Shown here: positions 1 to 13,230 of the stretch, in pieces
Position numbering within the stretch: the first letter of the stretch is position 1
Layout of the letters: every line of letters begins with the position of its first letter
Virus record (IMG/VR): IMGVR_UViG_2695420589_000016
Strand: one strand, 5' to 3'
Source of the DNA: a virus
Lineage: Duplodnaviria; Heunggongvirae; Uroviricota; Caudoviricetes
Length of the DNA stretch: 13,230 bases
Notes under the pieces: model-generated
The model's database searches: none
What the model saw: the letters and a program-made list of their open reading frames with translations, nothing else
Told to the model about the DNA's origin: nothing
Position numbers and translations under genes: made by a program

Positions 1-261
1 TTAATTCTGAGGTAAAGGCAAGCTCATCTGATTGTTTCCCCTGTGTGAAGCTGGCAGATCATGCCACGGGATATCTTCTGAAGAGTGAACGCCGGAGGCG
101 TGTTTTGATGTGAATTTATGGAAAGCTTCCAGTGTTGAGAAGCATACGCCGCATTCCAGATTGTTACACTGGTAATACTTTTGCCGCACGGTGTTTGAAT
201 CATTTTCCGGACGACTGGTGCGGATACGGGCAGATGCGCCACAAAGCGGACAACGGAACAT
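1..261 (-). CDS. ogr: Ogr/Delta-family zinc-finger late-gene transcriptional activator
   Basis: 86-aa ORF, ATG at 261-259, TAA at 3-1. SD GGGAGG (minus strand of 267-272) lies 5 nt upstream. N-terminus MFRCPLCG...YYQCNNLECG gives C4-x2-C7-x24-C32-x4-C37, the four-cysteine zinc finger of P2 Ogr / 186 Delta. Lies downstream of gpD on the same strand, as ogr does in P2. Confidence 0.85.
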   Translation of the reverse strand: MFRCPLCGASARIRTSRPENDSNTVRQKYYQCNNLECGVCFSTLEAFHKFTSKHASGVHSSEDIPWHDLPASHRGNNQMSLPLPQN

Positions 262-504: not shown

Positions 505-2007
505 TCATGTTTTGATTTGTGCGCTAATAGAACTTTTCTGTCTTTTCTTCTGCTCTTGAATGTATGTCTGCACCATTTCTGTTATGGTTGAAAATGCACT
601 ATGTTCTTCTATAGTTATTTTTAATTTAAATGTTTTAATGACCGGATTGGTAAGGTTATTTGCATCAACTCTCACCTCAATTGCACCATTCACTTTCTTT
701 GGTTTGTTGGCTGTATATACGAACAACGGGAATATTTCTTCTTTGACTTGATGACGCCACTCTTCGCATTCCAGCGATACAACTTGAACTGGCTCATTTC
801 TCTTTTCTTTATAATAAAAATCGTTTTTATCCCTTTCTGTTGGAGTAAGAGATAACAAAGGACCAATTTCTTTTGAAATTATACTGGATAGCGGTGTTTC
901 CAAAGCTCCCCCAGCGTAAGGCATTCTTTCTGTTACGCCACATACACTACGCCATTTTCCTTTGGGGGCGGTAGGGGCTGAAGGTAGGTCAATCCTTTTG
1001 CTTTCAGTCAGCTCTTCCATTATCTCCCAATTAAATCCACACAGACGAAAATCTCCTTTTGCTGTAAATGTTACCACAGCACGTTCAGCGATAGTATAAC
1101 CTGTGTTTTGTAATAAAAACGACAGCGGGTAATTTATTGCCTTCGGATTAATATGAGTATGACAGTTTTTCAGTATTTCTTCACACTGCTTTTTCCAAAG
1201 TGGATAATGTTTTTCTTTATAAAGAGAAATATCATCTGCTGATACAGGGAAATACTCCTGTTGACTAAATGACTTGATGATTTTTTCTAGTGATTGTGGG
1301 GTAGTTTGTTCATTGTCAAAGTTTGTAACCAATGGGAATGCATCCGTTAGTTGACAAAGCAAATTATCAACTTCATATTCAGATAAAGCTGTATAATAAG
1401 GAAGTACAATATTTAATTGCTCGTCATCGGCTACTTTAATGCTGAAATCGGGCATAGACTGAGTGAATTGCTTCAGCTTAGCTTCCAGCAATTTAATTTG
1501 TTTATCCTTTTCATCTGGCTCAGCAGGAAGCAACCATGAAGAAGGCACTTTATAGCAGATTATATTATGTTTTATTGCTGAAAAACGTGGACCGCTATCA
1601 TTGGTAATGATTGCCACCTCCGAATCTGGATCGTCAGCGCAATACCCTGCCGCAATACCAACAAAACGATCGTCGGCCTCCTGATAATCCAATTGTTCAG
1701 ATAACTGTTCACATGGTTTCAGGCTTAGATCCATGGTAAGAAAAACTCGCGGCGAGCGTTCACGAATAACAAGAGTCATGTCAGTTGAATCAACTACTTG
1801 ATTAAATAGGCTAGCAGCCTTCCTTGCTTTTTTGGATAGGCGGGAATTACCTTGCCCTTTCTGGCGGTCAATCTCTTGCTGAATGGGCCTTGTAATAATG
1901 ATACATACTTCATCACAAGCAGTAATCTCGGAAAAATTTACCTGCGTCAAGTCCTTGCATTGTAGAAAAATGTTTGAGTCTGGGAATAAATACAGCTTTT
2001 TGTTCAT
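505..2007 (-). CDS. Hypothetical 500-aa protein with PIN-like N-terminal nuclease domain and uncharacterised C-terminal region; candidate prophage-encoded defence/abortive-infection protein
   Basis: Long uninterrupted ORF, ATG at 2007-2005, TGA at 507-505. SD GAGG lies 5 nt upstream (minus-strand TTGAGGTTTGAATG). Residues 1-155 show a PIN-like pattern of conserved acidic residues: D10 in LYLFPDSNIFLQ, E/D in IQQEIDRQ, an acidic cluster in YCADDPDSEV, and T-x-D in VAIITNDSG. A K/E-rich predicted helical stretch sits around residues 165-180. The C-terminal ~320 aa contain nothing I can assign. Confidence 0.8.
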   Translation of the reverse strand: MNKKLYLFPDSNIFLQCKDLTQVNFSEITACDEVCIIITRPIQQEIDRQKGQGNSRLSKKARKAASLFNQVVDSTDMTLVIRERSPRVFLTMDLSLKPCEQLSEQLDYQEADDRFVGIAAGYCADDPDSEVAIITNDSGPRFSAIKHNIICYKVPSSWLLPAEPDEKDKQIKLLEAKLKQFTQSMPDFSIKVADDEQLNIVLPYYTALSEYEVDNLLCQLTDAFPLVTNFDNEQTTPQSLEKIIKSFSQQEYFPVSADDISLYKEKHYPLWKKQCEEILKNCHTHINPKAINYPLSFLLQNTGYTIAERAVVTFTAKGDFRLCGFNWEIMEELTESKRIDLPSAPTAPKGKWRSVCGVTERMPYAGGALETPLSSIISKEIGPLLSLTPTERDKNDFYYKEKRNEPVQVVSLECEEWRHQVKEEIFPLFVYTANKPKKVNGAIEVRVDANNLTNPVIKTFKLKITIEEHSAFSTITEMVQTYIQEQKKRQKSSISAQIKT

Positions 2008-2232: not shown

Positions 2233-3342
2233 TCACTCTGTTTCTGCTATCCATTCCGGGATTTTTGCCTCAAGCTCAAGCTGCGTGGTAAAGCCGCTGT
2301 TATCAATGGTGTGCTCGGCTTTTGCAATAATCCAGTCCTGATTATCAATCTCGCTTTTAAATCCTGTTACCGTGCCATGCATTTCGGGGTAGAGTTCTGC
2401 ACGTCCATGCGCCAGTGTGATGGAGAATGATGCGGCTCCGCGTTGTAGCTGCTGCCACTTTGCCGCCGCTGCACGTCTTGCTGCCTGCTCGTTCTGATAA
2501 GTTTTGCGTAACACAAACACGTTGCCTTCCGCACCTTCCATATAGTCGCCTTCCCGGCTGCTGCTTTTCTCCTTTTTTGGTTTTGACGGTTTGCGGCGTT
2601 TCACGCTGACTTTTTTCTTTTTCCCGTAATTAAGATCAAGCCAGTAAGCGCGTACCCCCGTATACGCTTCGCGGTCAGCAATGCGGAACTGATGGCGATC
2701 GCCGCTGCTGCGTGTGATGGCGAACGAGGGCAACGGCTGGCCCTGTGCGTTCACGCCACCACCGGGCATGATGAATAACAGATTACCGCTTTTTACCGTG
2801 GTGATTGCGCCCAGCATTTCCGCCATGCGCGTAAGGAAGGACATGTCGCTTTCTTCGGTCTGGTCGGCGTGGTCGATTTCGATATCCATCAGCATTTCGC
2901 TGATTTGCGGTTTCAGACCATACCGATGAGCGATGGCGGATACCACACGCTCAACGGTCACATCATGCCAGGACACCTCACGTTTAACGTTAAATTCAGC
3001 CCGAAAATCTGCGCTTCTGGCTGAAACAGTCAGCCTGTCCGGCGGTCCTTCGTGAGCGATTTCATCAACAATGTAAGTGCCTTTTTCTGTCAGCGGTTCT
3101 CCCTTCCAGCCAATGAGAACCGTCAGGCGCGCGCCCCGTGGCGGTAGCTGCAACTGACCATCCGCATCATCCAGCGTGATGGTGAGCTGGTCCGCCTCAA
3201 ATCCCCGGTTGTCGGTCAGTGACAGGCTCATCAGGCGCTCTGCCACGCCTGACAGCGTTTTACCCTCCGCGAGAATATCAAAATCCGGCATTTTCACGGG
3301 GTCTGTGCCCTGACTGAGCAATTGCATGGTGGTGTCGGTCAT
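2233..3342 (-). CDS. D: Phage late control gene D protein (gpD, tail/baseplate hub)
   Basis: The ORF is open from 3474, but I place the start at the ATG at 3342-3340 (MTDTTMQLL...) because it has a strong SD GGGAGGG 6-7 nt upstream, whereas the ATG at 3474 has none and would sit 25 nt from the divergent FI start. Size (369 aa) and position next to ogr fit gpD. Family assignment is from recollection of gpD-like proteins, not a search. Confidence 0.7.
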   Translation of the reverse strand: MTDTTMQLLSQGTDPVKMPDFDILAEGKTLSGVAERLMSLSLTDNRGFEADQLTITLDDADGQLQLPPRGARLTVLIGWKGEPLTEKGTYIVDEIAHEGPPDRLTVSARSADFRAEFNVKREVSWHDVTVERVVSAIAHRYGLKPQISEMLMDIEIDHADQTEESDMSFLTRMAEMLGAITTVKSGNLLFIMPGGGVNAQGQPLPSFAITRSSGDRHQFRIADREAYTGVRAYWLDLNYGKKKKVSVKRRKPSKPKKEKSSSREGDYMEGAEGNVFVLRKTYQNEQAARRAAAAKWQQLQRGAASFSITLAHGRAELYPEMHGTVTGFKSEIDNQDWIIAKAEHTIDNSGFTTQLELEAKIPEWIAETE

Positions 3343-3499
3343 CTGCTCCCTCCCTGTGTGGCATGGTCGCATGTGCGTGCGGAGGGGGTTACTGCTTTTT
3401 GTTGTCGCCGTGGCGGGAGAATGGCGCAGGGGTGAGATTACGCGCGTGGTGGGTGATGATTGTTGCCGAATCATTTAACGGATACAAGGGGTTGAAGCT

Positions 3500-4684
3500 A
3501 TGAGTGAAACTCGTTTTCATGGTGCCCGTGTTACGGAAAATACCGACCTGGTAACAGCGATTAACGATGTTGATTCCAGCGTTATCGGTATCGTGGCAAC
3601 GGCGGATGATGCGGACGCGGAGCTGTTCCCGCTGAACAAGCCCACACTGCTGCCCCGCGTCAATGACGTGCTGGGAAAATGCGGAACAACGGGGACGCTT
3701 TATCGTGCGCTTAAGGCCATCGCAGACCAGGTGAGCACAAAGGTGATCGTCGTTCGCGTGGCTGAACACAAAGAAGAAGACGGAAAAACGCAGGATCAAC
3801 TGGTTATCGGTGGTTCTGAATCTGACGGCAGCTATACGGGGATGTATGCGCTGCTTGTTGCAGAGCAGGATGAAAGCATCGGATACCGTCCGCGTATTCT
3901 GGCCGCGCCGGAGCTGGACACGGAGGCGGTGACAAAATCCCTGTGCGTGATTGCGGGTAAACTGCGCGCGTTTGTGTATGCCTCATGTCATGACTGTAAC
4001 ACGATGGCTGAGGCAATTACCTACCGCCAGAAATTCAACGAACGTGAGGTGATGCTCTTATGGCCGGACTTCATCGCCTACAACCCGAAAAGTGGCAAAA
4101 ACGAAACGTTCCCCGCGCCTGCCTATGCGTGCGGCCTTCGTGCGTACATTGACCATGAGCAGGGCTGGCACAAATCGCTGTCCAACGTTCCGGTTAAAAA
4201 TGTGCTGGGGATGTCCAGGCATGTGTTCTGGTCGTTGCAGGCCGAAGACAGTGATGCCAACAGCCTCAACAACAAAGAAATCACGACCATTATTCGTCGC
4301 AACGGGTTCCGCTTCTGGGGCAACCGCACACCGGAAACGAACGCCTACATCTTTGAGGTGTATACCCGAACCGCACAGGTGCTGGCTGATTCAATTGCGG
4401 AAGCGCAGTTTGAAACCATCGACAGTCCACTGACGCCTGCGAACGTGAAGGATGTTATCGGTGCCATCAGGGCAAAACTGGATTCACTGGTTACTGCCGG
4501 GAAACTGATTGGGGCGTCGTGCTGGTATGACGTGGTGGATAACGGCACCACGAATTTACGTCAGGGGCGCGTGCGTATTCGCTACAAATATACGCCTGTT
4601 CCCCCGCTGGAAGACATGGAGCTTTACCAGTCGTTTACTGATGAATTCTTTGGTCCCGCATTTGCGGTGCTGGGAGGTGCCTGA
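3500..4684 (+). CDS. FI: Contractile tail sheath protein (gpFI)
   Basis: 394-aa ORF, ATG at 3500, AAGGGG upstream. Size and sequence character match myovirus tail sheath (P2 FI is about 396 aa). Its stop overlaps the FII start (ATGA at 4682-4686). Confidence 0.9.
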   Translation: MSETRFHGARVTENTDLVTAINDVDSSVIGIVATADDADAELFPLNKPTLLPRVNDVLGKCGTTGTLYRALKAIADQVSTKVIVVRVAEHKEEDGKTQDQLVIGGSESDGSYTGMYALLVAEQDESIGYRPRILAAPELDTEAVTKSLCVIAGKLRAFVYASCHDCNTMAEAITYRQKFNEREVMLLWPDFIAYNPKSGKNETFPAPAYACGLRAYIDHEQGWHKSLSNVPVKNVLGMSRHVFWSLQAEDSDANSLNNKEITTIIRRNGFRFWGNRTPETNAYIFEVYTRTAQVLADSIAEAQFETIDSPLTPANVKDVIGAIRAKLDSLVTAGKLIGASCWYDVVDNGTTNLRQGRVRIRYKYTPVPPLEDMELYQSFTDEFFGPAFAVLGGA

Positions 4685-5196
4685 TGGCTGTACCAAAACA
4701 TCTTCGCTTTTTTACGCTGTTTGTGGATGGTGAAAACGAAGTGGGTAAGGTGACGTCCGTCACTCTGCCTAAGCTGACGCGCAAAACCGACAGCTACCGG
4801 GGTGGTGGCATGATGGGAGCGGTAAGTATTGATCTCGGCCTGGATGACTCCGCGCTTGATGCGAGCTTTGTCATGGGGGGCGCAGTTCGTGAGCTGTTCC
4901 TTAAGTATGGCGGCACGATTGACGGTACGCTGCTGCGTTTTGCGGGTGAATACTACACCGACGCTGAAAGCGACCTGTATGAAGTCGAAATGCGCGGACG
5001 TGTGACGGAAATTGATATGGGGGAAGCCAAACAGGGCGAAGCCACATCACACACTTACGCCATTAAAAACACCTACTACAAGCTGAGTGTTAACGATCGC
5101 CCGTTGTGGGAGATTGACCTGCTGAACTTCATTTACCGGAAGGACGGCAGGGACATTGTGCCCGATCGCATCCGTTCCGCGCTCGGGCTTGGCTGA
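4684..5196 (+). CDS. FII: Tail tube protein (gpFII)
   Basis: 170-aa ORF translationally coupled to FI. Size and position match the P2 tail tube protein (about 172 aa). Confidence 0.9.
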   Translation: MAVPKHLRFFTLFVDGENEVGKVTSVTLPKLTRKTDSYRGGGMMGAVSIDLGLDDSALDASFVMGGAVRELFLKYGGTIDGTLLRFAGEYYTDAESDLYEVEMRGRVTEIDMGEAKQGEATSHTYAIKNTYYKLSVNDRPLWEIDLLNFIYRKDGRDIVPDRIRSALGLG

Positions 5197-5250: not shown

Positions 5251-5616
5251 ATGAAAGAGACGAAAAACATCGATACCGAAAACACGGTCGTTGCTGACAC
5301 TGTGAAAGAAACCAGTGAGCGTGGCGTAAAACTTACCCAACCAATTGAGCGAGGCGGCGAAAAAATCACGTATGTGGAGATCACCGGGGCTATTGAGCAG
5401 GCTGGATCTCTGCGAGATTTGTCGCTGTCTGATGTGCTGAATTTGAAAGCGGAATCCATGTTTACGCTGCTGTCACGCGTGACATCACCGCGACTGGATG
5501 AAGTGACGATCAAAAAAATGGCATCCCGTGACTTTATTCAGTTATGTGTGGTTGCCGTAAATTTTTTGAGCGGTGCGGACTCTGGCGAGAAGAACGAACA
5601 GGCGACGGAAGCCTGA
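5251..5616 (+). CDS. E: Tail assembly chaperone gpE (zero-frame product)
   Basis: 121-aa ORF, ATG at 5251 preceded by AAGGAG. Sits between the tube and tape-measure genes, the conserved position of the tail chaperone, and contains the slippery heptamer near its 3' end. Confidence 0.8.
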   Translation: MKETKNIDTENTVVADTVKETSERGVKLTQPIERGGEKITYVEITGAIEQAGSLRDLSLSDVLNLKAESMFTLLSRVTSPRLDEVTIKKMASRDFIQLCVVAVNFLSGADSGEKNEQATEA

Positions 5617-5780
5617 TCACGGTTGTGTGCTTTGAGCACATAGAAGACTTTGTGGCGGATATTGCCGCCATTTTTAACTGGTCGCCCGCCGAAATCTTCA
5701 TGATGACGCCCGGCGAAGTGGTTAGCTGGCGTGAGCGGGCGGCACTTCGCAGCGGGAATGCAGACAATGAAGACTCTTGA
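5251..5780 (+). CDS. E': Tail assembly chaperone E+E' (-1 frameshift fusion product)
   Basis: The E frame up to the slippery site at 5562-5568 joined to the -1 frame ORF ending at 5780. This conserved two-frame chaperone arrangement precedes the tape-measure gene in P2 and most long-tailed phages. Confidence 0.65.
5562..5568 (+). other. Programmed -1 ribosomal frameshift slippery heptamer T_TTT_TTG (E to E')
   Basis: The heptamer is in the X_XXY_YYZ register relative to the E frame (codons AAT TTT TTG = N F L). The -1 frame is open from here to the TGA at 5778-5780. Confidence 0.7.
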
Positions 5781-8718
5781 TATCCGGGTCGCTTNNNNNN
5801 NNNNNNNNNNNNNNNNNNNNNNNNNNNNNNNNNNNNNNNNNNNNNNNNNNNNNNNNNNNNNNNNNNNNNNNNNNNNNNNNNNCCGCCTGATGGGGCAGTT
5901 TGGTGACTCCATCCAGCGAACGCAGGGGGCGATCAAAAATCTCGAGCGTCAGGCGCGTTCATTTGAGCGCGCCCGTGACGCTGTCAGTAAAGCGGATGCG
6001 GGCATCGTGAAAGCACGACGCCAGCTTAACGCCCTTAATCAGTTACAACGCACGGGTACAGTGCTCAGCGAAAAACAACAAAAGCTGATGCAGCAGTTAA
6101 GCACCCGGCTTGAACGCCTGAATGAATCGCGCACACGGGAAATTCAGAAAATGCGGGAACTTGGCGGAGAGCTGAAACGCCACGGCATTTCCCTGACAGG
6201 CAGCGATAACACCATCCAGCAGGCCATCAGACGCACCGGACAATACAACAACCAGCTTGAACGCGAACGGCGGGCGCTTGCGCGTGTAACGCAGGCGCGT
6301 GAGCGGTATTCACGCGCGCAGGAAACAGCGGGAAAACTGAAAACAGGTGGTGCGCTGGCAACAGGTGCGGCGGCAGCGGGCGGCTATGCTGCCGGGCGTT
6401 TTTTGCAGCCCGCTATCGGGTTCGGGAAAGAGATGTCCCGTGTTCAGGCACTGACGCGAATCGATAAAAACAGCCCGCAGTTTAAGGCGCTGCGTGAGCA
6501 GGCGTTAAAACTTGGCTCTGAAACGCAGTTCACCGCAGGCGATGCCGCCAGTGGACAGGCATTTCTTGCAATGGCTGGTTTCACACCGCAGGCCATTCAG
6601 GCTGCGCTTCCCGGCGTGCTGAGCATGGCAACGGCTGGCGGTATGGACCTCGGCGAGACGGCGGATATTGGTTCCAATATCCTGACGCAGTTCGGCCTCT
6701 CTGCTGACCAGATGGACCGGGTCGGTGACACACTTACCGCAGCGTTTACCCGTACCAACACTGACCTTCGCGCACTGGGCGAAACCATGAAATATGCAGG
6801 TCCGGTGGCGGGTAAGCTGGGAATATCGCTGGAGCAGGCCGCAGCGATGGCGGGCGTGCTGGCGAAGATGGGTATCAGGGGGAGTGATGCAGGTACAGCG
6901 TTGCGTAAAAGCCTGGCCAATCTGTCATCACCGCCAAAGGCAGCGGCAGAAGCACTGAAAGAGCTGGGGGTGTCAGTTGCTGACGCCAAAGGCAAAATGC
7001 GCCCGATGGAGAATGTGCTGGCCGATCTCTATAAAGCCACCCGCAAATACGGGGAGGTTGACCGGGTATCGTTCTTTAAGGACATTGCCGGAGAAGAGGC
7101 TTTCACATCATTTATGGGCCTCGTTGATGCGGCAGGTGACGGCNNNNNNNNNNNNNNNNNNNNNNNNNNNNNNNNNNNNNNNNNNNNNNNNNNNNNNNNN
7201 NNNNNNNNNNNNNNNNNNNNNNNNNNNNNNNNNNNNNNNNNNNNNNNNNNNNNNNNNNNNNNNNNNNNNNNNNNNNNNNNNNNNNNNNNNNNNNNNNNNN
7301 NNNNNNNNNNNNNNNNNNNNNNNNNNNNNNNNNNNNNNNNNNNNNNNNNNNNNNNNNNNNNNNNNNNNNNNNNNNNNNNNNNNNNNNNNNNNNNNNNNNN
7401 NNNNNNNNNNNNNNNNNNNNNNNNNNNNNNNNNNNNNNNNNNNNNNNNNNNNNNNNNNNNNNNNNNNNNNNNNNNNNNNNNNNNNNNNNNNNNNNNNNNN
7501 NNNNNNNNNNNNNNNNNNNNNNNNNNGGGAAGCTGGCTACGTTGCGTCTCGGTTTTTCTCTCCTGACCGAATCAATGAATGTTGTCAGGGTTCTGCCTGC
7601 ATTATGGGGAATNNNNNNNNNNNNNNNNNNNNNNNNNNNNNNNAATGGTGACGGGTTCCGTTTCTTTACTTGGTGGCGCTATCGGGGCGCTGTTCAGTCC
7701 GGTTAGTCTTATCGTGGCTGCGCTTGCCGGAGCTGCCGTTCTTATCTGGAAATACTGGGATCCCATCAGGGCATTTTTTGCCGGGGTGTTCAGCGGGATT
7801 ATGGAAAGGCTGACCCCGTTGCGCGAAACCTTTGAACGGTTTGGCCCTGTTTTTGATGTCGTGCGCGATGGGATTATTCAGGTCTTTAACTGGTTTAAAT
7901 CGCTGCTGTCACCGATGGAGTCCAGCAAGGAAACGCTGGATAAATGTGCCAGTGCTGGCGAGATATTCGGTAACGTTCTTGGCGGTGCGTTACAACTTGT
8001 TCTGACACCTGCAAAAATGCTACTGGATACGCTGGCGTGGATACTTGAAAAACTTGGCGTCCTTCCGGATGAAGCGGAAAGGGCGCGCAAGAAAATCGAA
8101 GACGCACAGCGTGCGGCCATTCTTCAGGACAAGGTTGCCTTGCTTCAGGGGAACCTGGCGAAAATCAATCCGCCGAAGCCTGTGGAAAATGGCAATGGCA
8201 CCGGAGGTGATAAACCCAAAGACAACAAACCGCTCACAGACAGCAATACCGGGACGCTACGCAGACTCAGCAAAATTGCTGATAACACAGGTAAGCTGGT
8301 TGATGAGACGAAAAAACGCATTGGCCCCGGCGATATTGTCTTTAAGAACCTGCCCCGCGCACTTGCTGTTCGTGGGGAGTGGCAGGAGCGGAAGATTGCG
8401 CAGGTCAGTAAGCCTGCCCCCGCAATTAATATCACACCCGTGGTCCCGGCTCCGCTGCCTCCGGCGCTGGTCCCTGTTGTTGCGGCCAGCTCCCGCCCGG
8501 TGGCGGAGGCCATACGCTCTCCAGTGGCATCAGTTCCTGTAACTTCCCGTAACCGGGAGCCTGTTGCCTCCGGATTTGGTGGTGAAATTCATGTTCATCT
8601 GCATAACGTTGTTACGCAGAATCCCCGCGAACTGGCGAAACTGGTCGGTGAAATGGTCAGGGCAGAAATGGAACGGCGCGCCCGTGCCGGGCGTGGCAGT
8701 TTTTACGATAAAGATTGA
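5767..8718 (+). CDS. T: Tail tape measure protein (gpT), interrupted by three N-runs; length and continuity uncertain
   Basis: ATG at 5767 (MKTLDIRVA) overlaps the E' stop. The N-terminal part is coiled-coil-like; the central part has the Gly/Ala-rich tape-measure core (GGALATGAAAAGGYAAG..., AGGMDLGETADIGSNILTQFGLS..., GIRGSDAGTALRKSL...). The C-terminal part runs 7645-8718 (MVTGSVSLLGGAIGALFSP...) with TGA at 8716-8718. N-runs at 5795-5882, 7144-7526 and 7613-7643 fall inside the gene. Confidence 0.75.
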
Positions 8719-8730
8719 GGAGTCATGGCC

Positions 8731-9219
8731 ATGATGATGATCTACGGCATGTTTGTTTTTGAGCTGCGTACATTGCCGCATCAGCAGTTACAGCAAAACA
8801 AAAGCTGGCGGCATGTGAAAAATGAACGCGTTAACCGTTCGGCAAGCTGGCAGTATATCGGTGCAGGTGATGAGCGCATCGTTCTTTCTGGTGTGCTTTA
8901 TCCTGAAATTACAGGTGGCGAAGTGTCGCTGTCGCTGCTGACCACGCAGGCGTATACAGGACGACCCTGGCCTCTGATTGATGGCGTCGGGCAGATTTAC
9001 GGCATGTATGTCCTGACCGAAACGAATACGACCCGCTCCGAGTTTGATCGCTACGGTAAGGCGAAAAAGATAGAATTTTCACTGACTCTTGAACGCTGTG
9101 ATGAGGATTTGCGGGAGCGCCTGCAATCCTCATCGTTCAGCGATATGCTGTCCGGCTTCAAAGATAAGGTAACATCATCCCTTAACAGCGCGGCCAGTTC
9201 AGTTAAAGGGTTGTTCTGA
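8731..9219 (+). CDS. U: Tail protein gpU
   Basis: The ORF is open from the ATG at 8725, but SD GAGGAG (8717-8722) is only 2 nt from it, so I prefer the ATG at 8731 or 8734 (MMMIYGMFVFELRTLPHQQ...). About 160 aa, directly after T, as for P2 gpU (about 159 aa). Confidence 0.8.
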   Translation: MMMIYGMFVFELRTLPHQQLQQNKSWRHVKNERVNRSASWQYIGAGDERIVLSGVLYPEITGGEVSLSLLTTQAYTGRPWPLIDGVGQIYGMYVLTETNTTRSEFDRYGKAKKIEFSLTLERCDEDLRERLQSSSFSDMLSGFKDKVTSSLNSAASSVKGLF

Positions 9220-9230
9220 TTTAACACAAA

Positions 9231-9267
9231 AACCGCTAATGGTCAGATTAGCGGTTATTTTGTTTCC
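9231..9267. terminator. Bidirectional rho-independent terminator between gpU and the invertase gene
   Basis: Perfect 10-bp inverted repeat AACCGCTAAT (9231-9240) / ATTAGCGGTT (9247-9256) with a 6-nt loop, flanked by an A-run upstream (9224-9230) and a T-rich run downstream (9257-9267). It lies between convergent genes. Confidence 0.55.
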
Positions 9268-10096
9268 TGACTCTTCTCTATTGTTCCGATTGATTCTCCT
9301 GCGGGGTGGTAACGATAAATCGTCGATATACCAATGCCGTAAATTATTGCCAGTTGTTTTCTGTCGTGCCCGTTTTTGATCAGCCTTGCTATTTGCTCAT
9401 GCTGTTCTTTTGTCAGCTTCGGTCGACGTCCGCCTGTGCGCCCCCGTGCGCGTGCTGCCGCCAGTCCGGCCAGTGTACGTTCAACAATTAATTCACGTTC
9501 CATTTCAGCCAGGGCACCCATCACGTGGAAGAAAAAACGCCCCATTGGAGAAGATGTATCTATGCTGTCGGTCAGACTGCGAAAATTAATTCCTCGCTCC
9601 CGTAGTTCCCCGACGAGAGAAATCAGATGTTTCATGCTTCGCCCGAGGCGATCCAGTTTCCNNNNNNNNNNNNNNNNNNNNNNNNNNNNNNNNNNNNNNN
9701 NNNNNNNNNNNNNNNNNNNNNNNNNNNNNNNNNNNNNNNNNNNNNNNNNNNNNNNNNNNNNNNNNNNNNNNNNNNNNNNNNNNNNNNNNNNNNNNNNNNN
9801 NNNNNNNNNNNNNNNNNNNNNNNNNNNNNNNNNNNNNNNNNNNNNNNNNNNNNNNNNNNNNNNNNNNNNNNNNNNNNNNNNNNNNNNNNNNNNNNNNNNN
9901 NNNNNNNNNNNNNNNNNNNNNNNNNNNNNNNNNNNNNNNNNNNNNNNNNNNNNNNNNNNNNNNNNNNNNNNNNCCTGTCCTTGTTCCGCTTAATTTATCT
10001 TCAAATATTTGTTCATATCCTGCACAAACAAGAGCGTTTCGTTGCAGGTCTGTATTCTGGTCATTTGTTGANNNNNNNNNNNNNNNNNNNNNNNNN
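9255..10096 (-). CDS. Serine DNA invertase, Gin/Cin/Pin/Hin family (internal region masked by N-run; start inside N-run, approximate)
   Basis: C-terminal part 9255-9661 reads (W)[62 protein letters not shown]...GRRPKLT... and the N-terminal fragment 9974-10069 reads [32 protein letters not shown]. Both closely resemble phage Mu Gin and e14 Pin as I recall them, including the catalytic-serine region VSTNDQ. The start codon is predicted about 8 codons upstream of the visible fragment, inside N-run 10072-10194. Confidence 0.85.
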
Positions 10097-10194
10097 NNNN
10101 NNNNNNNNNNNNNNNNNNNNNNNNNNNNNNNNNNNNNNNNNNNNNNNNNNNNNNNNNNNNNNNNNNNNNNNNNNNNNNNNNNNNNNNNNNNNNN

Positions 10195-10211
10195 ACCTCG
10201 GTTTACGAGAA
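10195..10211. other. Partial invertase crossover site (gix/hix-like), left half lost in N-run
   Basis: ACC-TC-GGTTTACGAGAA at the first unmasked bases after the N-run. It matches the recalled gix core ...AAACC-TC-GGTTTACAGGAA at 10 of 12 positions in the right half-site, and sits next to the invertase 5' end, as gixR does next to gin in Mu. Confidence 0.45.
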
Positions 10212-10970
10212 CTCGGCACAAGCGGGGAGAAAATACCGTTACTCAGTACAGCGAATACCTGGACTAATCGACAAACATTCAGCGGTGGCCTTTCTGGTGA
10301 ACTATCCGGCAATGCTTCTACAGCTGCAAAATTAAAAACTGCCAGGAAAATAAGCAATGTGGCTTTTGATGGTTCCTCCGATATCACATTAAAAGCAAGT
10401 CATGTTGGTGCGTTTGCCTTAGGGAAAACAGGAAGCACCGTTGCGAATGATAAAGCAGTTGGATGGAACTGGAGTAGCGGAGCCTATAACGCAACTATTA
10501 GTGGTGCATCAACGTTAATTATTCATTTTTATATGGGAGAAGGAAGTTGTCCTGCAGCTCAGTTTCGGATTAATTATAAAAATGGCGGTATTTTTTATCG
10601 TTCAGCCCGTGATGGTTATGGTTTTGAAGCCGACTGGTCCGAATTTTACACCACCAGAAAACCTTCAGCAGGAGATGTTGGTGCACTGCCGTTATCTGGT
10701 GGTCAACTGAATGGTGCACTGGGTATCGGAACATCCAGTGCTCTTGGCGGTAATTCGATTGTATTGGGTGATAATGACACGGGCTTTAAACAAAAAGGCG
10801 ATGGTAATCTGGATGTTTATGCTAATAACGTCCATGTTATGCGCTTTGTCTCCGGAAGCATTCAAAGTAATAAAACCATAAATATTACGGGACGTGTTAA
10901 TCCCTCGGATTACGGTAACTTTGATTCCCGCTATGTGAGAGATGTCAGACTTGGCACACGAGTTGTTTAG
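10197..10970 (+). CDS. Alternative tail-fibre C-terminal variable segment (Sv'-like), no own start codon, ended by an in-frame TAG
   Basis: The frame is open from the crossover site and encodes ...TANTWTNRQTFSGGLSGELSGNAS...[23 protein letters not shown]. The GNFDSRYV(R/K)DVRLG motif is shared with the intact fibre segment on the minus strand (12214-13230). Expression would require inversion to fuse it to the constant part of the fibre gene. Confidence 0.6.
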   Translation, partial: LGLRELGTSGEKIPLLSTANTWTNRQTFSGGLSGELSGNASTAAKLKTARKISNVAFDGSSDITLKASHVGAFALGKTGSTVANDKAVGWNWSSGAYNATISGASTLIIHFYMGEGSCPAAQFRINYKNGGIFYRSARDGYGFEADWSEFYTTRKPSAGDVGALPLSGGQLNGALGIGTSSALGGNSIVLGDNDTGFKQKGDGNLDVYANNVHVMRFVSGSIQSNKTINITGRVNPSDYGNFDSRYVRDVRLGTRVV

Positions 10971-11120
10971 ACCATGAAGAAAGGCGTGATGTATGAAAAA
11001 TCAGGCCATGTAATCACGGGGCTTGGTATTATCGGTGAAGTCGATGGTGATGATCCGGCAGTATTCAGACCAATACAAAAGTTAATTAACGGAACATGGT
11101 ATAACGTATCGCAGGTATAA
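10971..11120 (+). pseudogene. In-frame continuation of the Sv' fibre segment after the TAG, encoding the conserved fibre C-terminus (49 codons)
   Basis: Same frame as 10197-10970. Encodes [49 protein letters not shown], colinear with the C-terminus of the minus-strand copy (...[43 protein letters not shown]). Its TAA at 11118-11120 is 2 nt before the tfa' start, mirroring the coupling of the other copy. Confidence 0.55.
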
Positions 11121-11122
11121 TC

Positions 11123-11656
11123 ATGCAGCATTTAAAAAACATTGTCGCAGGTAATCCAAAAACCGTTGAACAATACCAGCTAACAAAGAATTTTGATGTT
11201 ATCTGGTTATGGTCCGAAGATGGAAAAAATTGGCATGAGGAATTAAAAAACTTTCAGGAGGATACAATAAAACTGGCTTACACAGTTGAGGGAATAATTA
11301 TTGCTATAGACAAGGATGTATCAGCAATTAATCCAGAAGGTTTAAGTGTCGTTGAGTTGCCTGATATTACAGCAAATCGCCGGGCTGATATTTCGGGCAA
11401 CTGGATGTTCAAAGATGGTGCGGTGATAAAGCGAACTTATACCGAGGAAGAGCAAAGGCAACAAGCGGAAAATGAAAAGCAGAGCCTGCTGCAGCTCGTC
11501 AGGGATAAAACCCAGCTGTGGGACTCTCAGCTACAGCTGGGCATCATTTCCGATGAGAATAAACAAAAATTAACCGAGTGGATGCTCTATGCGCAGAAGG
11601 TTGAATCCACAGACACCTCCAGCCTGCCAGTAACGTTTCCCGAACAACCAGAATGA
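11123..11656 (+). CDS. tfa: Tail fibre assembly protein (Tfa, chaperone for the Sv' fibre segment)
   Basis: 177-aa ORF, ATG at 11123. N-terminus [20 protein letters not shown]... and ...[34 protein letters not shown]... are typical of the Mu U / P2 G / E. coli TfaE family and paralogous to the minus-strand tfa. Confidence 0.85.
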
Positions 11657-11661
11657 AACAA

Positions 11662-11689
11662 GGCCCGATATCGGGCCTTAATTTTTACT
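11662..11689. terminator. Bidirectional terminator between the convergent tfa genes (perfect 16-nt palindrome GGCCCGATATCGGGCC plus T-run)
   Basis: The palindrome at 11662-11677 is followed by TTAATTTTTA on the plus strand and by a U-rich stretch on the minus strand. It sits between the tfa' stop (11654-11656) and the tfa stop (11685-11687). Confidence 0.55.
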
Positions 11690-12212
11690 CAGGCTTTTGT
11701 GGCCATTCTGGCTTTGCCGTATCCACACGGCTGACCAGAACACTGTAGCGTTCCCATGCTTCCAGTCGTGTGCGTTCCTCGTCTGTTGCCATATTCAGCC
11801 TGACAGCGCGTTCCAGCGGCTGGATGACTGATTCAGCTTCGGAAAGCAATGCGGCCTTTTGTGATTCGGCCTGTTGTTGCTGTTCGTCAGCCGTATAAAT
11901 CCGTTTAACCACAGCTCCGTCCTTAAACATCCACTTACCGGAATCATCAGCACGACGATTAGCTGTAATATCAGGAACCTCAACGACGCTATAACCTTCA
12001 GGGTTAAGCGTGGAGGCATCTTTGGTGATGGCGACAATAATATTATTTGCATCGTAAACAATCTTTATTGTGTCTGGCTGAAAGTTCTTCACTTCCTCAT
12101 ACCAGTTTTTTCCGTCCTCAGAGTAAAGCCAGATGACTCCGTGCTTCTTTGTTAACTCATACTGCTCCACTGTTTTAGCATTACCTGCTTTTATGTTCTT
12201 TAAGTGCATCAT
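11685..12212 (-). CDS. tfa: Tail fibre assembly protein (Tfa, chaperone for the currently expressed fibre segment)
   Basis: The ORF is open from 12245, but the homologous start [20 protein letters not shown]... is the ATG at 12212-12210, 1 nt after the fibre stop codon (12216-12214). The sequence parallels the plus-strand Tfa throughout (...[33 protein letters not shown]...). Confidence 0.85.
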
Positions 12213-12213
12213 A

Positions 12214-13230
12214 TTAAATACTCGCCACATTATACCAAGTGCCATTTATATACTTTTGCACTGGCCTGTAATGAACGCCTGCAATATTATCGGCAGAGTT
12301 TTTTCCGGTATCCTGTACGTTAATCCCCGTCAGTACATAGCCTGACGGGCACTGAAAATTCCATGTTTGCCAGTTGTTCACTCCATAATATTGCTGTGAA
12401 CCAAGTCGAACATCTTTCACATATCTGGAATCAAAATTGCCATAGTTGCCGGGAATAACTTGCGAGCCGCAAAGCCAGTTCCCGTTATTATCCATGTACG
12501 CCTGACCATCGGTGCCATTGGCTGTCCTTGAGTTATTAATCATGTAGATGCCAAATTGCTTATTTCCCAGACCGCCAATCATAAATTTGCGGTCGGCATG
12601 GTCCTGACGGAGCAAAGCCTGAGCACCATCAGTGGATACCGCATTACGTCCCAAAATAACATTCTGGTCACGCATATGAATCCACATGCCGGTACTACTG
12701 TTAATTGCAAAACGGTTTGCAAATATATCCCCTGTAACATCAAGACCATGCCCCATGCTTATCCGGCCAGTTCTGAGATTAAGCGTAAAGGGGCGTAGTG
12801 GCCCTATATTACCATTTTCCCCTTCATTCTCTCGTGTAGGGATGATATGCAGGCATTCTTCAGAACGACGAAAAATGGCACCAAAAGATGAATTAAATAT
12901 CCTCAGTGCATTGACTGTCGATATTTTCACTTCACTGCTGAAAAGGGCTTCAACAAGAACAGACAAAGCATTCCATTTAAGATTCATCAGGTCTTTAGGC
13001 CGGGTGCCAATGATGCGGTGTCTCCATTTGAAATATTCATTGCCGTTGTTGCCTGTTTCAAACCACATGTAGGAATCGGTGTCTGCATCCGAATTATTTT
13101 TAAACCCAATCTTTGCCCAGTCAGTATTTCGAATCCAGGCAAGGATTGAGTCGTTTTCAAAAGTAAGTCCACCGGACAACGTATCGCCATTTTTTTGCAC
13201 GGCGTTACCAGCCTTGTTTACCGTTTCCTG
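12214..13230 (-). CDS. Tail fibre protein, C-terminal receptor-binding portion (gene continues past the window end)
   Basis: The frame is open from the window end ([26 protein letters not shown]...) to TAA at 12216-12214. It carries the [14 protein letters not shown] motif and the C-terminus ...[19 protein letters not shown]. The ORF tool's M at 13200 is a GTG inside the open frame, not the true start. Confidence 0.8.

Follow-up and report, generated by a model that had tools for sequence, protein, structure and literature searches.

How does a P2-like prophage come to carry its tail genes from FI to U on the strand opposite to D, and how could the short spacer left between the two divergent starts serve both of them? 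In the record of phage P2 (NC_001895), FI, FII, E, E', T, U, D and ogr are all co-directional and follow H and G, in agreement with the preliminary description of this locus; D is the last gene of the F operon and ogr continues in the same direction. In the DNA analysed here, by contrast, the operon ends at U and D is reversed. This stretch, referred to throughout as the window, comprises 13,230 nt and is the tail end of a P88-like (Xuanwuvirus, Peduoviridae) prophage of Escherichia coli. The tail genes of the P2 F operon are homologous to those of the window, with identities of 48% for D, 45% for FI, 44% for FII and 47% for U.

Gene content and orientation of the window

Pfam scans gave gene identities throughout the window, and the features of its tail module and flanks are as follows.

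1-261, minus strand: ogr, Ogr/Delta zinc-finger late activator (PF04606, E 5e-14, above the curated cut-off)
505-2007, minus strand: PIN-domain cargo gene between D and ogr, 500 aa (PF13638, E 4.5e-8)
2233-3342, minus strand: D, tail/baseplate hub, 369 aa (PF05954; the open reading frame spans 2233-3474)
3500-4684, plus strand: FI, tail sheath (Pfam sheath domains; 97% identical to the P88 sheath)
4684-5196, plus strand: FII, tail tube (PF04985, E 2e-46)
5251-5780, plus strand: E and E' tail chaperone pair (E at 5251-5616; the E' frame ends at 5780)
5767-8718, plus strand: T, tape measure (PF10145, E 6e-58; ATG at 5767; interrupted by N-runs at 5795-5882, 7144-7526 and 7613-7643)
8725-9219, plus strand: U, tail protein (PF06995, E 8e-39)
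9231-9256, both strands: two-way intrinsic terminator between U and the invertase (10-bp stem, T runs on either strand)
9255-10071, minus strand: DNA invertase of the Gin/Pin type, serving the tail-fibre segment (Resolvase and HTH_7 domains; readable open reading frame 9255-9635)

The product of ogr is 99% identical to an unannotated ogr reading frame that adjoins D in P88. The E/E' pair was assigned by position and length, as in the annotations of P88 and of E. coli FDAARGOS_943, the latter of which names a GpE family protein. Although the open reading frame of D extends further upstream, its start at 3342 is correct because a strong Shine-Dalgarno sequence (GGGAGGGAG) lies 5' of this ATG on the minus strand and because the 369-aa product that begins there matches the main 369-aa NCBI cluster (6,052 member sequences) at 99% identity over its full length. 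The start of FI at 3500 agrees with the P88 annotation, and the two starts together therefore define a spacer of 157 bp at 3343-3499, across which D and FI are divergent. At the other end of the block, U and the invertase converge on the terminator at 9231-9256.

Five N-runs (5795-5882, 7144-7526, 7613-7643, 9662-9973 and 10072-10194; 937 N in total) interrupt the window, and they fall in the tape-measure gene, the invertase and the region upstream of the invertase. Their lengths in T and in the invertase differ from those of the matching stretches of P88. At first sight an in-frame stop seems to divide the tape measure, a single open reading frame of 935 aa in P88, into two parts (5731-7566 and 7579-8718), and a 313-bp insertion seems to cut the invertase short (126 aa vs 195 aa in P88); both readings were rejected, as the breaks coincide with N-runs. 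The invertase is broken by the run at 9662-9973, on either flank of which it aligns to the P88 invertase, and its start is hidden by the run at 10072-10194. Neither the D/FI nor the U/invertase junction touches an N-run, and both lie in uninterrupted sequence. The preliminary description is thus borne out on the divergent starts and the length of the spacer between them, on the convergence of U and the invertase over a terminator, and on the contiguity of both junctions.

The inverted block among relatives

The closest described relative is Escherichia phage P88, the type of the genus Xuanwuvirus in the Peduoviridae. It matches the window at 95% identity over 70% of the window's length and has the same gene order and orientation, in a comparison limited to the 13-kb window and not extending to the whole genome. 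The P88 annotation places the baseplate genes, the fibre genes and D on one strand and the genes from sheath to U on the other, with the invertase adjoining U. In two complete E. coli chromosomes, FDAARGOS_943 and E2855, D and FI likewise point away from each other and U points towards the fibre module, and the GenBank annotation of Salmonella phage SEN5 (Senquatrovirus; D 62.5% identical) displays the inverted layout. The window has the arrangement of P88 and SEN4/SEN5, in which the U-T-E-FII-FI genes, on one strand, stand between the fibre module and the pair of D and ogr, on the opposite strand; it differs from these phages in the variable segments of its fibres.

Among 5,426 complete E. 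coli genomes, a query spanning the D/FI junction (3100-3750, 651 bp) had an unbroken match over 80% or more of its length in 1,355, with nearly every match at 95-99% identity. By the same coverage criterion the U/invertase junction was contiguous in 621 of the 5,426, and other genomes had a different gene after U. We also surveyed 80 loci with D homologues, one genome per species, on which the proteins of the window were placed by tblastn. The sample divides without overlap: all 60 loci with a D 58-98% identical to that of the window have FI, FII, T and U on the strand opposite D, with an extrapolated distance of about 120-195 bp between the starts of FI and D and with ogr after D, whereas all 20 loci with a D 48-53% identical have the P2 order with U and D co-directional, as does P2 itself. 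The gap in D identity between the two layouts runs from 53% to 58%, and the identities of FI and U divide the 80 loci in the same way. The inverted loci come from Salmonella, Edwardsiella, Symbiopectobacterium, Serratia, Erwinia, Pantoea, Enterobacter, Kosakonia, Brenneria, Pectobacterium, Klebsiella, Raoultella, Xenorhabdus, Photorhabdus, Providencia, Morganella, Hafnia and Yersinia, and from one Aeromonas metagenome-assembled genome. A homologue of the fibre-assembly genes was recognisable near the 3' end of U in 27 of 57 clade loci and was convergent with U in 25 of those 27; the convergent U junction is documented for these 25 loci and for the annotated records, not for every locus. The inverted FI-FII-E-T-U block is the fixed gene order of a large and common group of P2-related prophages of the Enterobacterales, comprising the P88-like elements and their relatives.

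Two records in this comparison call for separate remark. Locus L005 (NZ_JBQPOM010000071.1), which carries the name 'Vagococcus sp. WN89Y' and hence a Firmicutes label, contains, on a contig of 226 kb, a prophage tail region with 95-98% protein identity to this P88-like element of the E. coli/Salmonella type; assembly contamination or mislabelling is likely. Aeromonas phage phiO18P (NC_009542) was considered as a published example of the inverted block and rejected, since its order is a different one in which all these genes are co-directional, the sheath and tube genes lying upstream of the lysis genes and the tape-measure gene downstream. It belongs to another genus of Peduoviridae with a third gene order, and the canonical P2 synteny is therefore not universal in that family.

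Could the orientation of the block nevertheless be an artefact, or a transient state? A scaffolding error that turned the FI-U block round would be compatible with the five N-runs, which mark the source sequence as unfinished or masked, but these gaps are at neither junction, both of which are read through in uninterrupted sequence, and the D/FI junction is contiguous in the 1,355 complete E. coli genomes and in the isolated phages P88 and SEN5. The chance of a contig-level misassembly is vanishingly small on this evidence, and we regard it as excluded. A recent, strain-specific inversion, or repeated flipping of the 5.7-kb segment by the neighbouring Gin/Pin-type enzyme, is suggested by the position of the invertase gene, which directly adjoins the U end of the block; it is nonetheless very improbable. 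A search of the window found no inverted-repeat crossover sites flanking the FI-U block, with no inverted repeat pairing the region at 3343-3499 with that at 9220-9300, and the sole strong inverted repeats in the window are inside the tail-fibre segment, at 10896-12459. The fibre region does resemble the segments served by Gin, Pin and Cin (the G segment of Mu and the C segment of P1/P7), having two assembly genes and two variable fibre ends in inverted arrangement, but the FI-U block is unlike them in lacking flanking inverted repeats and in occurring in a single orientation in all relatives. An invertible segment should be found in both orientations among close relatives; here there was one orientation in 60 of 60 clade loci and in the 1,355 E. 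coli genomes. The P2 orientation occurs in none of the relatives with a D at least 58% identical, many of which have no match to the invertase, and E2855 keeps the inverted orientation although an acetyltransferase gene replaces its invertase gene.

What had been described as an unusual departure from P2 synteny is consequently the norm of the family, seen in P88, SEN5, FDAARGOS_943, E2855, the 1,355 E. coli genomes and all 60 loci of the survey; the comparison with related prophages that the preliminary description had proposed as a check thus yields the inverted layout at every locus where D is at least 58% identical. Among the three explanations offered there, an ancestral arrangement of the lineage stands and misassembly falls, and 'inversion' is valid solely for an old, fixed evolutionary event relative to P2.

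The inverted gene order is already public in annotated records, even though we found no statement on the inverted block in the papers on P88, SEN4/5 and Citrobacter phiSM or in two on tailocins. For the annotation and quality control of prophages, it follows that a P2-like prophage with FI-U opposite D should not be flagged as rearranged or misassembled, this being the normal state of a lineage that one complete E. coli genome in four carries. The orientation of the block is moreover an easily scored character, and a clean clade marker, that divides two deep groups of P2-like elements.

The D/FI spacer as a predicted two-way promoter

Given a fixed divergent junction, the preliminary description had reasoned that the spacer must carry divergent late promoters, and the geometry conserved among relatives supports this in the form of predicted promoters. 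In the window the elements in question are these.

3343-3499: D/FI spacer, 157 bp, proposed two-way late promoter region (from comparative data)
about 3354-3356, minus strand: predicted leftward transcription start (D), from the geometry of -10 and box
3363-3368, minus strand: predicted -10 hexamer of the D promoter, GACCAT, preceded by the extended -10 TGC; 43 nt from the box centre
3403-3420: Ogr-type activator box TGTCGCCGTGGCGGGAGA, TGT-N12-AGA, centre at 3411.5; aligns with the boxes of relatives
3432-3437, plus strand: -35-like GTGAGA of the FI promoter, 17 nt before the -10; GCGTGA is conserved in relatives
3455-3460, plus strand: predicted -10 hexamer of the FI promoter, GATGAT; 43 nt from the box centre
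about 3467-3469, plus strand: predicted rightward transcription start (FI), from the geometry of -10 and box

The two predicted starts are about 111 bp apart, each some 55-56 nt from the centre of the box, and the predicted leader of D is short, at about 12-14 nt. The box lies 88 nt from the ATG of FI and matches TGT-N12-ACA at five of six positions, its right half being the non-consensus AGA. As the preliminary description had noted, the spacer contains no exact TGT-N12-ACA; the sole copy in the window is at 12395-12412 in the fibre region, where 3.0 would be expected in the window by chance. A five-of-six match within 157 bp is itself close to chance level (by a rough estimate about 1.3 are expected on both strands), and the significance of the box comes only from the comparative data. 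A simple sigma-70 scan found no promoter in the D/FI spacer, as would be expected of activator-dependent promoters.

For that comparison, 58 distinct spacers of the inverted clade were stacked without gaps on their best TGT-N12-ACA-like site, and a hexamer was counted as -10-like if its second base was A, its sixth T, and three or more of the six agreed with TATAAT. The box position holds an exact TGT-N12-ACA in 35 of the 58 and TGT-N12-AGA in 19, and its centre lies roughly in mid-spacer, 74-88 nt from the ATG of FI and about 62-80 nt from that of D. In 97% of the 58 spacers a -10-like hexamer begins exactly 43 nt from the box centre on the FI side; the D-side hexamer, on the opposite strand, begins at 43 nt in 84% of them and at 44 nt in a further 12% (96% together), and none of the other offsets exceeds about 20% of spacers. 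The distance of the D-side hexamer is fixed to the box and variable to the ATG of D. A GCGTGA motif is also conserved in the stacked spacers, at +18 to +24 from the box centre, and there is no second conserved TGT-N12-ACA-like box among them. These spacers are related by descent and their conservation is in part inheritance, but in a thinned set of 30 that are less than 80% identical the figures are 93% for the FI side and 77% plus 20% for the D side. Loci of P2 order served as a control: the FI-side hexamer was present in 13 of 17, whereas the mirror position, corresponding to the D side, had one in 2 of 17, which marks the D-side element as a peculiarity of the inverted clade.

The absence of an exact Ogr site had been presented as a difficulty for promoters in the spacer, and on the sequence comparison it largely disappears: the TGT-N12-AGA at 3403-3420 is probably the lineage's own variant of the Ogr box and not a defect, being homologous to exact boxes in 35 of 58 relatives. 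The AGA half-site would thus be normal for the lineage: the P/O spacer of P88 has the same variant, there read as TCT-N12-ACA (TGT-N12-AGA on the complementary strand) and flanked by mirrored hexamers.

The design suggested by these data has an experimentally mapped precedent in P2. In the P2 record one feature, at 3057-3087, is labelled 'activator binding site; pO, pP promoters', and the start of the P operon is given as 3016 and that of the O operon as 3127, so that the starts are 111 bp apart and 55.5 nt either side of the centre of the box, TGT-N12-CCA; the -10 hexamers, TAGCCT and GAAACT, each start 43 nt from that centre. The D/FI spacer resembles this arrangement in having one dyad box between back-to-back late operons with the -10s 43 nt to either side, and in its length, 157 bp as compared with 154 bp for the P/O spacer of P88 and 173 bp for that of P2. 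It differs in that the junction is between D and FI and not between P and O, there being no such junction in P2, where D comes after U; in that its right half-site is AGA, whereas the pF and pP/pO boxes of P2 are TGT-N12-CCA, neither of them having ACA; and in that its starts are predicted, whereas those of P2 are mapped. The FI side also compares well with the pF promoter of P2, the start of which is mapped in the record: the FI ATG follows the pF box by about 82 nt, against 88 nt here, and the -10 of pF is about 43-44 nt from the box centre. What the relatives of P2 order lack, unlike the clade of the window, is a -10 hexamer on the mirror side of the pF box.

Our favoured interpretation, which we consider probable, is that the permanently inverted FI-U block of this P88-like prophage is served by a two-way, Ogr-dependent late promoter in the 157-bp spacer, with one box shared between the two directions. 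The single dyad-symmetric box at 3403-3420 would activate transcription both ways from about 55.5 nt upstream of each of two mirror-image starts, the rightward one near 3467 (-10 GATGAT, 3455-3460) producing the FI-FII-E-T-U transcript and the leftward one near 3356 (-10 GACCAT, 3368-3363) that of D. The cognate activator would be the Ogr-family protein encoded at 1-261; late promoters of the P2 type require Ogr together with the alpha subunit of RNA polymerase. In contrast to gene order, which can be read directly, promoter activity, dependence on Ogr and the start sites are predictions from the conserved geometry. Sharing a box would keep D co-regulated with the tail genes despite its having left the F operon, and the predicted promoter would explain that co-regulation.

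The most serious competitor accepts the layout as the norm of the lineage but gives D a promoter independent of the shared box, either constitutive or with an activator site of its own that has escaped recognition. The D-side hexamer of the window, GACCAT, is indeed weak (three of six matches to TATAAT). An extended -10 TG, which could confer some activator-independent activity, is found on the D side in 32 of 58 spacers and on the FI side in 0 of 58. Upstream of the D-side hexamer there is in addition a conserved alternating (CG)n tract with no assigned role, present in 45 of 58 spacers; the corresponding FI-side position has such a tract in 5 of 58. It has the form CACGCGCGCG or CATGCGCGCGCG on the plus strand of relatives and is better conserved in, for example, the spacers of loci L008-L036; the window has a degenerate copy at 3369-3382 (gcatgtgcgtgcgg), directly upstream of its D-side -10. 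A tract that resembles it, CCCGCGCGCG, abuts the P-side -10 in the P/O spacer of P88. The hexamer and tract might accordingly have another function, for instance as a binding site for a repressor or as part of the mRNA leader. We think it unlikely that D is independently transcribed, and likewise that the D-side elements have such another function. The hexamer is locked at 43 or 44 nt from the box while its distance to the D ATG varies, the geometry equals that of the mapped pP/pO pair, the stacked spacers have no second conserved TGT-N12-ACA-like box, and D is a virion tail protein, needed when the products of FI-U are needed.

For the origin of the shared-box promoter, the most economical history, on grounds of parsimony only, is one old inversion event that broke the sequence a little upstream of the pF box and between U and D. 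The inversion would have placed the symmetric pF box beside D, after which a -10 with an extended TG could have evolved on the D side, and it would be older than the divergence of the Xuanwuvirus-, Senquatrovirus- and Xenorhabdus/Photorhabdus-type elements. More tentatively, and with less confidence than we attach to the two-way promoter itself, one may suppose that this ancient inversion led to the co-option of the pF box as a two-way promoter, that it has become a fixed marker of a deep clade of Peduoviridae, and that the CG tract was perhaps added as a control element. So understood, the marker might extend over Xuanwuvirus, Senquatrovirus, the Klebsiella Kp48xx phages and the P2-like prophage or tail loci of Pantoea, Pectobacterium, Xenorhabdus and Photorhabdus, a scope that we put forward with the same reserve. 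Lying beside an extended -10, the CG tract could act as a sensor of supercoiling between the divergent promoters.

The promoter design is already known from the pP/pO pair of P2. What this analysis adds, besides the orientation as a clade marker, is the recognition of the D/FI spacer as a candidate second instance of it. It would be a second natural example of a two-way late promoter with a shared box, and its many sequence variants would allow tests of how two RNA polymerases are served by a single Ogr site. If the proposed history is true, it would also be a documented case of a one-way activator-dependent promoter made two-way by rearrangement of the genome.

Variable slots, tail-fibre segment and a possible attachment site

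Outside the tail module, the window differs from P88 in the PIN-domain cargo gene between D and ogr. The stretch at 302-2224 is missing from P88, in which ogr abuts D, and a sigma-70-like promoter (TTGATA-16-TATTAT) lies at 2070-2043, just upstream of the gene. The cargo gene was found in 59 of the 5,426 E. coli genomes, in all at 99% identity or more and at 99.9% in the best match listed, compared with 1,355 for the prophage junction. Its protein has no match in PADLOC or NCBIfam. D and ogr are likewise separated by about 1.4-1.5 kb of additional sequence in loci L005 and L044, and the interval has the appearance of a variable slot for cargo, perhaps defence genes.

The junction between U and the fibre genes (9220-9660) is a second variable slot. 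It holds the invertase gene in the window and in P88, and a serine O-acetyltransferase gene in place of the invertase after U in E. coli E2855 (L087:20323-21096); in O157:H7 strains similarity ends right after U.

Beyond the invertase, the window at 10195-13230 is an invertible tail-fibre segment of the Mu-G / P1-C type with two variable fibre C-termini, and it includes the following features.

11123-11656, plus strand: fibre-assembly gene 1
11659-11680: two-way terminator between the fibre-assembly genes
11685-12245, minus strand: fibre-assembly gene 2

The segment is 84-92% identical to SfMu, Mu, D108, P7 and D6, and its inverted repeats are 64-186 nt long and 71-75% complementary. On the ogr side, E2855 (L087:10303-11500) has the prophage terminus, consisting of ogr and then a Hok/Gef toxin gene, directly downstream of ihfA, which suggests that the attachment site of the P88-like prophage adjoins ihfA. 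In P88 a hok/gef-like gene is likewise found beyond ogr.
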